DNA from: a virus
Taxonomy: Duplodnaviria; Heunggongvirae; Uroviricota; Caudoviricetes
Virus record (IMG/VR): IMGVR_UViG_2740892270_000010
Length of the DNA: 4,574 nucleotides
Direction: 5' to 3' (one strand)
This document shows positions 173 through 4,574 of this stretch, in pieces. Position numbers and translations under genes: made by a program. The notes beneath the pieces were generated by a model. That model ran no database searches. It was given only the letters and a program-made list of their open reading frames with translations, and was not told where the DNA came from. Within the stretch, counting starts at the first letter, position 1. Every line of letters starts with the position of its first letter.

Positions 173-1249
173 ATGAATATTTATCGCGCAATGACATCAT
201 TTTTTAATAATATGATGGCGATGTCTGCTCAGGCAGCTGAAATTTATAATAAAGACAGTAACAAGCTGGATCTGTACGGGAAAGTTAATGCTAAGCACTA
301 CTTCTCCTCTAATGATGCAGATGATGGTGATACTACTTATGCCCGTCTTGGCTTCAAAGGTGAAACCCAAATCAACGATCAACTGACTGGTTTCGGTCAG
401 TGGGAATATGAATTCAAAGGCAACCGCGCTGAATCTCAAGGTTCCTCCAAAGATAAAACCCGTCTTGCCTTCGCTGGCCTGAAATTCGGTGACTACGGCT
501 CCATCGATTACGGCCGTAACTACGGTGTAGCATACGACATCGGTGCGTGGACTGACGTCCTGCCAGAATTCGGTGGTGACACTTGGACTCAAACAGATGT
601 GTTCATGACTGGTCGCACCACTGGTGTTGCAACTTATCGTAACAACGACTTCTTTGGTCTGGTTGATGGTCTGAACTTTGCTGCTCAGTATCAGGGTAAA
701 AATGACCGCACTGACGTAACTGAAGCTAATGGTGATGGTTTCGGTTTCTCCACTACTTATGAGTATGAAGGATTCGGTGTAGGTGCAACCTATGCTAAAT
801 CTGACCGCACTAATAATCAGGTTATCTACGGTAACAACAGCCTGAATGCATCTGGTCAAAATGCTGAAGTATGGGCAGCTGGTCTGAAATATGATGCGAA
901 CAACATCTATCTGGCTACCACCTATTCTGAAACCCAGAACATGACTGTTTTTGGTAATAACCATATTGCCAACAAAGCACAAAACTTCGAAGTAGTTGCA
1001 CAATATCAGTTCGACTTCGGTCTGCGTCCGTCCGTTGCTTACCTGCAATCTAAAGGAAAAGACTTGGGTGCGTGGGGTGATCAGGACCTGGTTGAATATA
1101 TTGATGTAGGTGCAACCTATTACTTCAACAAAAATATGTCCACTTTTGTTGATTACAAAATCAACCTGATTGATAAGAGCGATTTCACGAAAGCATCTGG
1201 CGTTGCTACCGATGATATCGTTGCTGTAGGTATGGTTTACCAGTTCTAA
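173..1249 (+). CDS. nmpC: OmpC/NmpC/Lc-family outer-membrane porin (prophage moron); N-terminal signal region atypical, possibly 5'-rearranged
   Basis: 358-aa ORF. From about codon 15 ([14 protein letters not shown]...) to the C-terminal ...VGMVYQF it reads as a classical 16-strand enterobacterial porin of the prophage NmpC/Lc type, with a C-terminal Phe. The first ~14 codons ([14 protein letters not shown]) do not match the canonical MKKLTVAISAVAAS... signal peptide as I recall it. There is an in-frame TAG immediately upstream (170-172) and no good Shine-Dalgarno. Confidence 0.85.
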
Positions 1250-1437: not shown

Positions 1438-1821
1438 TTAATTAGAGTTATTAACAACGATATCCATCTCTAACCGGATATCTAATGCCATTAACATCCC
1501 TTCAATTATGCCCTCAGCCTTCTGTAACCTTTTCCCGATATAACCATCAGAGCAGCAATGCTTACCTGCCAGTGACATGAATGTCATACCGACTACATAA
1601 TAATCTACTAATAAATCGTGCAAATCGCTGTTGTTCTTTTTCAGACGGGCCATGCACCCGCAAATAATCATCGCGTCATCGTCACAACATTGCGGGCGAG
1701 ATTTTACTTTTGAAGTAATTAATCCCTTAAAACCGGCGGCAATGGACGACCAGGTCACATCTTCATGATTATTAGCCGCCCACGCTCCCCAACGCTCAAG
1801 AACCATCTGAATATCACGCAT
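1438..1821 (-). CDS. quuD: Late-gene antiterminator Q (phage 82 / DLP12 QuuD type)
   Basis: 127-aa product [24 protein letters not shown]...[16 protein letters not shown]...[12 protein letters not shown]... recalled as DLP12 QuuD / Q82 family with Cys-rich zinc-binding motifs. ATG at 1819-1821 (minus) has GGAG 7 nt upstream. The track ORF's TTG at 1834-1836 is treated as a spurious extension. Confidence 0.9.
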
Positions 1822-1906
1822 CAACTTACTCCACAAAAATCAGACCAGAACGCCAATTACAAGCAAAAATCAACAAAACAGTATTAGTTGATTGTTATCT
1901 CTGACT

Positions 1907-2047
1907 TCATACTCCTGCTCCTGTCAGGGTTTTGGCGTAATTCTTCAGTATTCGGTAATCGGTCAAAACAGAACCGGGGAAACGATATAAGCGCAGATGC
2001 CCCCAGCGGTGGCGAAGAAGTTCTGCCATATAAAACTCAAACATCAT
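1907..2047 (-). CDS. ylcG: Small 46-aa protein, YlcG-like (position and size match DLP12 ylcG)
   Basis: Hand translation of the minus strand gives [46 protein letters not shown]. Its ATG overlaps the rusA stop in an ATGA arrangement, with a GGGGAA Shine-Dalgarno-like element 5 nt upstream. Below the ORF-track length cutoff. Confidence 0.6.
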
Positions 2048-2406
2048 TCATTCCCCATTTCGGTGATGGTCAGTTCCAGCCTCCCACCTTTGGTAACAGG
2101 CATCTTCACAACGCGGTAATCAACGACCTGAGCATCATCCAGCCAGAAACCTGCTTTGGTGAGTGCGTCAAAAGCGGCTTTTTGCAGATTATCCAGGTCA
2201 CGGCGACGGCGATCCGGCATGTGGCACTCAATACGGATTTTCACTGGCATAGCCAGGCCGATATCCAGCATTGCGTTTTTAATGATTCGGGTGACGTTAT
2301 CGCGGTATGCCTGCCCTTCTGCGCTGATGTGTGTGCGCCCGCGATTATGGCGGTAATAGCGGTTATTGCTCGGAGGCCAGGGTAATGTGATGCTGTAGGT
2401 ATTCAC
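2044..2406 (-). CDS. rusA: Holliday-junction resolvase RusA (crossover junction endodeoxyribonuclease)
   Basis: 120-aa product [26 protein letters not shown]...[30 protein letters not shown]... is essentially the RusA sequence as I recall it. The start codon is GTG (reverse complement of 2404-2406), overlapping the ybcO stop as GTGA. Confidence 0.93.
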
Positions 2407-2693
2407 GCCTTAATAACCCCCTCTTTCAGCCAGATAACCTGCGTTCTCGCCATACCTTCCAGCGCGCATTCTTTTGCATACTCAGCATCGACAAAATATG
2501 TGCGGCGGTCGATTTCGTCGTGACAGGCAGAACATGCAATGGTGGCAATCAGGTCTGGCGGTTTGATACCGGTACCGCACAATCCAGCCAGCCGGATATG
2601 TGCCAGTACTGACGTTTCAGGATTGCCATTACATACGCCAGGGATTCTTACCTGGCATTCCCGACCACGCGCTGCTTTTCTCAAATCAGCCAT
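2403..2693 (-). CDS. ybcO: YbcO-family (DUF1364) Cys-rich putative nuclease of the lambdoid nin region
   Basis: 96-aa product [42 protein letters not shown]...[11 protein letters not shown]... matches DLP12 YbcO as recalled. ATG at 2691-2693 (minus) is preceded by AAGGAGG with a 4-nt spacer. The track ORF's 13-codon TTG-initiated extension is rejected. Confidence 0.9.
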
Positions 2694-2856
2694 GATTCCT
2701 CCTTGCTGCCAGTCGCAACCATTTTTTATCAACCAGGCTAGCGGTATATCCGAGCAGTGTTGGTATTTCGGATGGCTTCAGCTCAGGCTTACGCTTACGA
2801 CGATTTGATACTCTGTAGATGTGCCCGTTCATGACACGAATAAGCGGTGTAGCCAT
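2686..2856 (-). CDS. ninE: NinE-family small basic protein
   Basis: Hand translation gives [56 protein letters not shown] (56 aa), matching DLP12 NinE as recalled. Strong AGGAGG 4-5 nt upstream; its ATG overlaps the ybcN TAA as TAATG. Below the ORF-track cutoff. Confidence 0.8.
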   Translation of the reverse strand: MATPLIRVMNGHIYRVSNRRKRKPELKPSEIPTLLGYTASLVDKKWLRLAARRNHG

Positions 2857-3311
2857 TACGCCTCCTGCTTATCGCGCAGCTGCTGGTATTCACAGCTCTG
2901 CGGAATTGTCAGGTGGCAGCCGATATTCATCGCCCAGGCTTCGACTTTGCACAGGAAGATGTACATCTCGCCGGTTTCCAGCTCTGACGTATGGCGGAGG
3001 GATTGGACGGTGGTGACCTCGCCGGACACGACATCTACACGGTCTTTGCTTTCGTAGCCGAGATAGGTGTGCTTCATCGCGTCTTTGACCCACTCAGGCG
3101 TAGCGAAGGTCTTGCCGCGGGCGATGAGATATTCGCTGATCTCCGTGTACCACATGTGGCTGAGCGCGTTCTGCGACAGGCTGCGCTTCTCGCGCCACGG
3201 CTTAACCTGCAGGCGTAAGCATTGCCCGGCATCCAGCAATGGCTGAATCTGCTGGCCGATGGCCGCGAAGTTACCGCGATGGAGTTTGATGCCGTCTACT
3301 GGCAGAGTCAT
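2856..3311 (-). CDS. ybcN: NinB-family protein (YbcN-like; recombination mediator / DNA base-flipping protein)
   Basis: 151-aa product with the NinB-type motif ...WREKRSLSQNALSHMWYTEI... (compare lambda NinB ...RNRSLDQNRKLWA...). GGGAGG Shine-Dalgarno 4 nt upstream of the ATG at 3309-3311 (minus). Gene order ninB-ninE-ybcO-rusA-Q is canonical lambdoid. Confidence 0.9.
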   Translation of the reverse strand: MTLPVDGIKLHRGNFAAIGQQIQPLLDAGQCLRLQVKPWREKRSLSQNALSHMWYTEISEYLIARGKTFATPEWVKDAMKHTYLGYESKDRVDVVSGEVTTVQSLRHTSELETGEMYIFLCKVEAWAMNIGCHLTIPQSCEYQQLRDKQEA

Positions 3312-3459: not shown

Positions 3460-3488
3460 ATTATGGCGGATTGATTACGATAAATCAA
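3460..3488 (-). promoter_or_regulatory. Candidate sigma70 promoter reading leftward into the ybcN-ninE-ybcO-rusA-ylcG-quuD operon
   Basis: On the minus strand: TTGATT (3488..3483), 17-bp spacer, CATAAT (3465..3460). It sits at the GC-composition junction between phage backbone and AT-rich cargo. Confidence 0.35.
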
Positions 3489-3575
3489 AACTATCTTGAA
3501 GCCAAAACAGTGATCTTCGCTTTAAAAACCTTGTATACTTTCACCTAATCACAGCCAGAACTATGGATCTAACCA

Positions 3576-3953
3576 ATGACCAACAAAGAAAACAAAGATA
3601 AATATATTAACAAGTTCAAGAAAGAGCTTTCAAAATATATACAACCAACTGCTGGAGTGGACATTCAATTATTTAACTCTAAGGATGGTGGTGGTGTAAT
3701 TAAAGCCACTTTGAATAGAAGTGGAAAAAGAAAATCATCTATTGCTGGTAATTTTACTAAATTAGGTGAGGCAATTACCTCGAGTGGGCAGAGGGTTTTT
3801 GGTGGTGATCTATCAAATGTGAATTTTTACGGAACAAATACGATTTTTGATGGAGATACAATATTTTTAATTAAATCACCTGATTCAGAGGAGTGGTCAT
3901 CACAAAAAGCTTCCAAAGACGTAGAGGGCATCGTATTTGGAGGGAAAAAATGA
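3576..3953 (+). CDS. Hypothetical 125-aa Lys/Gly-rich soluble protein (AT-rich cargo gene A), function unknown
   Basis: 378-nt open frame in DNA of roughly 25-30% GC, where random frames are dense in stops. ATG start; no signal peptide or transmembrane segment; no family I recognise. A TATACT -10-like element lies at 3534-3539 upstream. Confidence 0.6.
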   Translation: MTNKENKDKYINKFKKELSKYIQPTAGVDIQLFNSKDGGGVIKATLNRSGKRKSSIAGNFTKLGEAITSSGQRVFGGDLSNVNFYGTNTIFDGDTIFLIKSPDSEEWSSQKASKDVEGIVFGGKK

Positions 3954-4035
3954 TTAACATTACTACTAAGGATGCACTCAAGTCAGTGGTGAAGTAAGAG
4001 ATCTAGTAATTCTTCTTGAAACTGATGGAAAAACG

Positions 4036-4377
4036 GTGTCTGATTATTTGCAGCCAATCCCTCCCAAAAAAGATACACACTGGAGCATGATTTTCATTCC
4101 GGTAGCAATTTATATACTACTTAATCTTGTATACATTATTGCTCACCCATTATTTCCTGAAAAATATCTAAAAACATCAACATCTATATTTCTATTCATT
4201 TCCTTCATATTAAGTGCAATAGTAGCATATTTTGTTTTCCATAAGCATAAATCTGCCACTCTATCCATATGCAGCTTAGTGTTCTTAGTGTTAATTGTAG
4301 GTGCTAACGTAGGGTTTATCAGTTACAGCGACCTAACACAAAAAGCGACGCAAAAATTAGATAGTTTGTCTAAATAA
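4036..4377 (+). CDS. Hypothetical small integral membrane protein with three predicted transmembrane helices (AT-rich cargo gene B); start codon uncertain
   Basis: Open frame in AT-rich DNA. Three hydrophobic stretches of about 20 residues (IFIPVAIYILLNLVYIIAHPLF; SIFLFISFILSAIVAYFVF; LSICSLVFLVLIVGANVGFI) separated by short charged loops. First start in frame is GTG at 4036; an internal ATG at 4087 would give 96 aa. Same strand as gene A, 82 bp downstream. Confidence 0.6.
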   Translation: MSDYLQPIPPKKDTHWSMIFIPVAIYILLNLVYIIAHPLFPEKYLKTSTSIFLFISFILSAIVAYFVFHKHKSATLSICSLVFLVLIVGANVGFISYSDLTQKATQKLDSLSK

Positions 4378-4484
4378 TTATGTTGCCATGCGAAGTATGC
4401 ATGGCTGCATGTCTGCCTTCCATTTAAAATGGGCTAAGACCTATAACCCTAAATATTATTCTTTATTATCTTCTTTACCACTTC

Positions 4485-4574
4485 GGTGATGCTGCCAACT
4501 TACTGATTTAGTGTATGATGGTGTTTTTGAGGTGCTCCAGTGGCTTCTGTTTCTATCAGCTGTCCCTCCTGTTC
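4485..4574 (+). mobile_element. IS1 insertion sequence, left terminus (IRL) and first 90 bp; continues beyond the window
   Basis: GGTGATGCTGCCAACTTACTGATTTAGTGTATGATGGTGTTTTTGAGGTGCTCCAGTGGCTTCTGTTTCTATCAGCTGTCCCTCCTGTTC is the IS1 left end as I recall it, including the ~23-bp terminal inverted repeat. Confidence 0.9.
4540..4574 (+). CDS. insA: IS1 InsA (transposition regulator), N-terminal 11 codons only; truncated by the window edge
   Basis: GTG GCT TCT GTT TCT ATC AGC TGT CCC TCC TGT translates to MASVSISCPSC, the InsA N-terminus. Confidence 0.8.
   Translation, partial: MASVSISCPSC

Follow-up and report, generated by a model that had tools for sequence, protein, structure and literature searches.

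What does an AT-rich island with two small genes do beside the nin region of a lambdoid prophage? The question is raised by a 4574-bp stretch of DNA from the IMG/VR virus record IMGVR_UViG_2740892270_000010, analysed here as a whole and referred to below as the window. The window is a DLP12-like lambdoid prophage remnant, and its island, which lies between ybcN and one end of an IS1 element, carries two genes that we call A and B. We found that the island is a horizontally acquired mobile cargo cassette. A and B are real genes under constraint and represent an unnamed, widespread and experimentally tractable candidate family, with gene B broken by a frameshift in the copy studied here.

The first-pass annotation of the window had described an abrupt change in base composition at the island. 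The change is real, at a GC content above the 25–30% that had been estimated: positions 3470–4484 have 34.1% GC against 50.1% in the nin block from quuD to ybcN, and the GC content of third codon positions (GC3) is 26% in gene A compared to 76% in ybcN. The flip in gene orientation, the 125-aa open reading frame (ORF) of gene A and the beginning of the IS1 end had been placed correctly (Table 1). Homology to island-free prophages of the DLP12 type stops at ~3490 on the left and at ~4484 on the right; therefore, the cassette is ~1 kb long, very near the extent originally drawn for it.

The suggestion that the island is a moron, or horizontally acquired cargo, also held. The insert parts genes that are direct neighbours in related phages, differs from these genes in base composition and forms a foreign cassette at the junction of the replication and nin regions; beyond this junction, the gene pair is also present in one phage, in plasmid slots and in chromosomal islets of distant phyla. 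Cassettes with at least 99% identity were present in 46 of 5426 complete E. coli genomes, chromosomal every time and located between ybcN and the replication gene P. The intact order in annotated relatives is ybcN, two hypothetical genes on the opposite strand, and the genes for replication proteins P and O.

The second gene had been taken for an ORF of ~113 aa, and its status as a pseudogene was overlooked. This ORF is an out-of-frame remnant of the 142-aa gene B. In intact copies, gene B is annotated from an ATGA overlap with the stop codon of gene A, corresponding to window position 3950. According to the alignment with the intact strain A7, the 1-bp deletion at 3974 leads to a premature stop codon at 3995–3997, after 15 codons of B. 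The 113-aa remnant is devoid of residues 1–36, the most conserved part of B in the family alignment. The exact 113-aa product was found on ~100 contigs, every one of them labelled Shigella sonnei, and the frameshift is therefore a true allele of the S. sonnei lineage and no read error, which also assigns the window to S. sonnei. The copy of the module in the window is almost certainly inactive. Since gene B is frameshifted here, cloning positions 3490–4420 of this sequence, as had been proposed for a phage challenge, would test a broken module.

Intact versions of both genes are well conserved. Protein lengths are fixed in the enteric versions (125 aa for A and 142 aa for B). Among the versions from E. 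coli, Klebsiella and other enteric bacteria, the ratio of nonsynonymous to synonymous substitution rates (dN/dS) was 0.077 for gene A and 0.076–0.13 for gene B, with saturated dS for both.

Weak ribosome-binding sites (RBSs) had been reported for the two genes. This is true of gene A, which is preceded by just GGA at 3565–3567, 8 nt upstream, but not of the native start of gene B, where GGAGGG is positioned 5 nt upstream. The hairpin directly 3′ of gene B has an invariant stem and a variable loop in the window and in loci L003, L004, L006 and L008, with no U-tract after it. It may serve as a 3′ end stabiliser or as a weak terminator. An Rfam search of the window returned no family.

The A-B pair across genomes

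A profile of gene A was searched against 1.84 billion representative proteins, yielding 111 clusters at E ≤ 1e-3 and 30 at E ≤ 1e-10, nearly all of them full-length (120–135 aa). The residues conserved in A are Y10, G39, F84-x-G86-T87, K100, W107 and D115. The gene A product has no signal peptide and no transmembrane (TM) segment. The AlphaFold2 (AF2) model, built from a shallow alignment with a predicted local distance difference test (pLDDT) score of 58.5, consists of a helix, two strands, a helix, two strands and a helix. A is a predicted cytoplasmic alpha/beta protein of ~125 aa with a basic N-terminal helix.

In the AF2 model of B (pLDDT 72.5), three long helices follow a small N-domain modelled at low confidence. 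Proteins of the B type are about 125–145 aa long across the family and share one build, namely an acidic cytoplasmic N-domain of ~35 aa, a Trp, three TM helices, a basic loop between TM2 and TM3 (RFK or HKHK) and a short tail. The consensus of the N-domain is MK.G..EGTPEE[IV]..F...G[LF][DN]...Y...P. The positive-inside rule predicts a cytoplasmic location for the N-domain and basic loop and a periplasmic one for the C-terminal tail.

The linkage between the two genes was evaluated from both sides. An A-centred scan of one genome per species and of IMG/VR recovered 32 loci from at least 10 phyla. The phyla and classes include Nitrospirota, Gamma-, Beta-, Alpha- and Deltaproteobacteria, Cyanobacteria, Bacteroidota, Acidobacteriota, Gemmatimonadota and Saganbacteria, with identities across phyla of up to 73%. 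Of the 30 testable loci, 28 had a full-length B-type gene directly downstream of A, in most cases overlapping it by 4 nt; B is N-terminally truncated in one of the two exceptions and degenerate in the other. Relatives of A with 28–35% identity are likewise followed by a B-like gene of 125–128 aa, again with a 4-nt overlap. In the B-centred scan, performed on metagenomes, A was directly upstream of B in 17 of 19 testable loci; L063 and L068 hold an intact orphan B, and B is frameshifted in L072.

A and B co-vary in pairwise identity, with a correlation (r = 0.75) that none of 2000 Mantel permutations reached. Judging from gene order and overlap, A and B are a translationally coupled unit. The mean charge across the family is +3.9 for residues 1–25 of A and −2.8 for the N-domain of B, and this complementarity would fit direct contact between the two proteins. 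No constant third gene was found beside the pair around the surveyed loci; a 309-aa ORF upstream of the pair in L019, considered as a third gene, proved to be a plasmid Rep protein. In E. coli CV839-06 (L002 6107–7258), an independent IS1 copy is inserted in gene A and B is intact, and the same prophage carries IS3 in rrrD.

The genomic contexts of the pair are diverse. In Enterobacteriaceae, it is flanked by the replication module on one side and by ybcN/DUF1367 or NinB on the other, and runs antisense to the early-right operon. This position and orientation are constant across mosaic prophages that differ from one another in every one of the replication, nin, lysis and packaging modules. At the same junction, L003 (7665–9348 and 11118–12971) carries genes for a colicin-like protein (377 aa, weak PF01024), a colicin-immunity-like protein (174 aa), a DndB-like protein and an HNH protein. 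With this cargo set, the replication–nin junction looks like a multi-cargo hotspot.

A version of the pair with 42% identity was found in a 4.8-kb mobilizable Col(Ye4449) plasmid, directly after rep. In sister plasmids, the same post-rep slot is occupied by DUF4231 with TIR, a DEAD-box helicase, an AAA ATPase, an acyltransferase or two other small genes. DUF4231 is a domain that we take to be a SLATT-type membrane domain. In individual plasmids (L020 1600–2326; L021 300–1594), the slot contains DUF4231 and TIR in pCP8-3-ColYe4449, and an unannotated 89-aa zinc-ribbon-like gene with a 154-aa gene in a K. pneumoniae plasmid.

Elsewhere, the pair was detected in a phage between early and lysis genes, in an islet after smc-zipA-ligA beside an MbcA/ParS antitoxin, and in an islet rich in toxin–antitoxin (TA) genes together with BrnA, Gp49/HTH, GNAT and Ymh genes. 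One copy adjoins the PADLOC candidate family PDC-M49A. In an uncultured Bacteroides (L046 3966–9919), the pair is situated between mod and res of a Type III restriction–modification (R-M) operon, on the same strand.

Gene A also occurs in a different arrangement. Protein P0104 (447 aa, from a 1.7-kb Logan contig) combines an A domain (residues 1–120) with an HNH endonuclease domain (191–231) and an uncharacterised C-terminal part of ~200 aa. This fusion suggests a sensor or adaptor function for A, with more than one possible effector as its partner. Two other leads were rejected. A pentapeptide-repeat identity, raised by protein P0013, was dismissed, with no PF00805 or PF13599 match in gene A and 68 relatives, and a match to the 1251-aa protein P0130 was spurious, this protein being made up of cadherin-like repeats. 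Protein P0013 (127 aa, 1145-bp ENA contig) has a pentapeptide-repeat N-terminus and is 100% identical to gene A over its final 50 residues; this single chimeric product is probably an artefact of assembly or recombination.

Neither protein had been recognised in the first-pass annotation, and database searches led to the same outcome. Pfam and NCBIfam contained no domain for A (69 members) or B, returning only sub-threshold generic TM families. Sequence-profile searches of the PDB with three alignments produced chance-level matches only, and fold searches with A and B recognised nothing. Both proteins belong to full-length PHROGs families labelled "unknown function". No match was obtained by tblastn of both proteins against INPHARED phages or of protein P0031 against PLSDB plasmids; by these searches, therefore, the family is seen only in prophages, metagenomes and a plasmid contig absent from PLSDB.

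Possible roles of the pair

We give about an even chance to the reading that the pair is a conflict module for phage defence or superinfection exclusion, in which B would be the membrane effector and A a cytoplasmic sensor or regulator. A would be bound to the N-domain of B, and B would act either by permeabilisation or depolarisation of the membrane, causing abortive infection, or by blocking entry. The orientation antisense to the lytic early-right operon would permit expression of the module from the repressed prophage, with lytic read-through opposing it. For this role, or for the toxin–immunity role that the first-pass annotation had also put forward, the evidence is circumstantial: the Type III R-M operon, the slot shared with TIR and SLATT genes, the TA-rich islet, the neighbouring PADLOC candidate family, the MbcA/ParS antitoxin, the colicin-like, immunity-like and DndB-like genes of L003, and the A–HNH fusion.

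Several results weigh against this reading. None of the PADLOC-DB v2.0 families was matched at E ≤ 1 by 10 proteins of both families, distant members included. In the literature searched, the accessions, PHROG identifiers and architecture have no mention or phenotype on record, and neither accession is present in the DefensePredictor supplements. No recognisable catalytic or ligand-binding motif was seen in A. The neighbourhood of the pair was surveyed using 150 ORFs, the three nearest on each side at 28 loci; housekeeping genes formed the majority, and matches to Type I/IIG R-M, MADS and integrases the minority. Taken as raw counts, these matches are merely suggestive of a modest enrichment in defence genes, and the immediate neighbours in non-enteric genomes are mostly housekeeping.

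The promoter belongs with these points. The first-pass annotation had assigned the pair an apparent promoter of its own, and this stands as a weakly supported candidate. The -10-like hexamer TATACT is positionally conserved, aligning with TGaTATAgT in L003, L004, L006 and L008 (Klebsiella included) within flanks that are otherwise unconserved. However, no -35 element is recognisable at the site, and a consensus promoter scan did not report it.

The main rival, which we consider unlikely, is a toxin–antitoxin or addiction module, with B as a membrane toxin and A as its co-translated proteic antitoxin, stabilising the carrier and contributing to defence only secondarily. An upstream soluble gene with a 4-nt overlap to the downstream gene is the typical layout of type II TA loci, and carriage on small mobilizable plasmids and in a TA-rich islet agrees with addiction. 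The repeated decay in the window, L032, L042, L048 and L072 also resembles that of orphaned TA loci. However, the intact B genes of L063 and L068 stand without an upstream A, and the same discord is seen in E. coli CV839-06, where A is disrupted and B intact, although polarity of IS1 could silence B. By Pfam, A contains no HTH, RHH or AbrB DNA-binding domain, and the Col plasmid backbone already has a RelE/ParE–NadS TA elsewhere. The broken gene in the window is the putative toxin, with the antitoxin intact, a state that does not discriminate between the models.

Next in rank, and rather improbable, is non-lethal superinfection exclusion at the inner membrane, in which B blocks genome entry and A is its cofactor or chaperone. 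P22 SieA, T4 Imm and HK97 gp15 are genome-entry blockers. Such a role agrees with an orientation suited to prophage expression, with an accessory position in lambdoid genomes and with the predicted build of B, a small inner-membrane protein that crosses the membrane several times and ends in a periplasmic tail. It accounts poorly for a pair that is common outside phages, in chromosomal islets by housekeeping genes and within an R-M operon; moreover, the strictly conserved cytoplasmic partner, the conserved cytoplasmic N-domain of B and the A–HNH fusion point to intracellular sensing more than to passive blocking of entry.

We consider even less probable a non-conflict accessory role, for example in envelope or stress physiology or as a small transporter with its regulator, hitch-hiking on mobile elements. 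Such a role is compatible with the many housekeeping neighbours and with the lack of defence-model matches, but sits badly with a patchy phyletic distribution driven by horizontal transfer, with prophage and plasmid cargo slots that elsewhere hold TIR/SLATT genes, with the position inside an R-M operon and with the frequent loss or decay of copies. Finally, chance ORFs in AT-rich junk DNA, an idea that the base composition, the weak RBS of gene A and the missing family annotation might invite, are excluded by dN/dS values of ~0.1, 111 full-length-aligning clusters, synteny across phyla and full-length PHROG families.

The phage-defence reading can be extended to the whole family. That the pair is a new and widespread anti-phage family, in which A is a novel sensor or adaptor fold wired mostly to a 3-TM protein and to HNH in at least one fusion, is a tentative proposal, possible but on balance doubtful. 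If it is true, the family would span Proteobacteria, Bacteroidota, Cyanobacteria, Nitrospirota and others, and would have escaped island-based discovery through its tiny size and its frequent occurrence either on its own between housekeeping genes or as cargo of prophages and plasmids. The lambdoid replication–nin junction and the post-rep slot of small Col plasmids would then be cargo positions worth mining. Should the intact pair protect, it would constitute a compact defence family of <0.9 kb with no recognisable domains, missed by current annotation tools. The pair is no surprise in kind, since candidate systems made of small unannotated genes have become a common finding at the cargo positions of prophages.

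The surrounding prophage

The features of the window are collected in Table 1.

Table 1. Coordinates of genes and other elements in the 4574-bp window.
Feature	Position	Strand	Description
Porin gene	173–1249	+	
quuD, ylcG, rusA, ybcO, ninE, ybcN	1438–3311	−	
ybcN (DUF1367)	2856–3311	−	Left flank of the cassette; first gene of the nin block; transcription directed away from the cassette
Mobile cassette	3490–4484		~995 bp, 34% GC; promoter region, gene A, gene B, 3′ hairpin and last 29 nt of P
-10-like hexamer TATACT	3534–3539	+	Candidate promoter of the A-B pair, ~36 nt 5′ of the gene A ATG
Gene A	3576–3953	+	125 aa, intact; WP_000182282 type; phrog_18061
Shine-Dalgarno GGAGGG	3939–3944	+	Strong, 5 nt upstream of the native start of gene B; read from sequence
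Gene B (pseudogene)	3950–4377	+	Native product 142 aa; WP_000608370 type; phrog_16940
Frameshift in gene B	3974	+	One G of a GG pair absent compared to all 46 E. coli copies
113-aa remnant ORF	4036–4377	+	GTG-started; TM part of B kept, conserved N-domain gone
Hairpin GCCATGC-gaagtat-GCATGGC	4385–4405		Directly 3′ of the gene B stop
Replication gene P remnant	4456–4484	−	Last 9 codons and stop; from strain A7 annotation and alignment
IS1 terminal inverted repeat and inner sequence	4485–4574		Cuts P exactly where the cassette has its right-hand mosaic boundary

On the right-hand side, homology to strain A7 breaks at 4485, and IS1A is annotated in a sister strain. The IS1 part of the query had a median of 10 matching places per E. 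coli genome, and the junction between island and IS1 was found in none of the complete E. coli genomes. The insertion point of IS1 (4484/4485) is within a base or two of the right-hand mosaic boundary of the cassette, the point where homology to other P genes resumes (L001 10015–10018). This overlap may be a coincidence or may reflect a common fragile or recombinogenic site.

The porin gene is of the nmpC/ompD type and is annotated as 'ompC' in relatives. Compared to E. coli A7, it has a 67-bp deletion with the deletion point at ~212/213, which took away the RBS and start codon together with the greater part of the signal peptide. The 358-aa porin ORF, read from the ATG at 173, consequently begins with a non-functional N-terminus, and S. 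sonnei probably carries this gene as a pseudogene. Two GC-rich hairpins, GGGAGGCTTTGCCTCCC and GGGGCGTTGCAACGCCCC, occupy the interval where porin and quuD converge (1262–1410), with ATTTTT after GGGGCGTTGCAACGCCCC. From their sequence, these hairpins look like terminators.

The prophage around the cassette is decaying, as seen in the 5′ deletion of the porin gene, the IS1 insertion in P and the frameshift in gene B. With these three genes inactivated, S. sonnei presents a further case of decay of prophage and accessory genes. In the intact prophage of E. coli A7 (L001 13444–15092), a gene for an ImmA/IrrE metallopeptidase and a DUF4411 gene are located beside the repressor, and iss is found near the lysis genes, adding to the accessory cargo of that prophage.

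Comparison with known systems

Three established classes were a poor match. The pair departs from type II TA systems, with no HTH/RHH/AbrB domain or known toxin family in Pfam or NCBIfam and with B retained without A. B does not match class I holins, as it has no holin Pfam match, its predicted topology is N-in/C-out versus the N-out/C-in of holins, and it is encoded outside the lysis cassette. An immunity function against pore-forming colicins was likewise discarded, with no PF03857 match in B; the colicin-like and immunity-like genes of L003 are a separate neighbouring unit.

Membrane-toxin TA systems (type V GhoST; type I Hok and TisB) resemble the pair in their small, possibly toxic membrane protein, upstream partner and mobile carriage. 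In contrast to these systems, B is a larger protein whose 3 TM helices accompany a conserved cytoplasmic domain, the partner A is neither an RNase nor an antisense RNA, and orphan intact B genes exist. SLATT modules (DUF4231 with TIR) share the Col(Ye4449) cargo slot with the pair, as well as the logic of a soluble partner and a small TM effector. However, B has no Pfam match to DUF4231/SLATT, and A contains no TIR or other known enzymatic domain.

Lambdoid morons such as bor, lom and HK97 gp15 are also inserts of foreign composition between conserved phage genes, in an orientation permitting expression from the prophage. The A-B cassette differs in having two coupled genes, in a promoter and terminator that are candidates only, and in occurring outside phages as well.

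The closest parallels in architecture are two prophage-borne pairs. In mycobacteriophage Butters, gp30 and gp31, a cytoplasmic and a multi-pass membrane protein, are expressed from the prophage and act jointly against heterotypic phages. The A-B pair shares the combination of a cytoplasmic and a multi-pass membrane protein on a prophage, whereas the sequences and hosts are unrelated, the comparison being made only through the negative PADLOC and PHROG scans. In the RexAB system of phage lambda, the cell is depolarised by the membrane partner, reportedly upon its activation by the soluble one. The A-B pair, too, is borne on a prophage and is predicted to encode a cytoplasmic protein and a small multi-pass inner-membrane protein. 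However, A, B and their distant members have no Pfam or PADLOC match, PADLOC being a collection that presumably includes Rex models; the likeness between RexAB and the A-B pair is thus one of analogous logic, with no homology.

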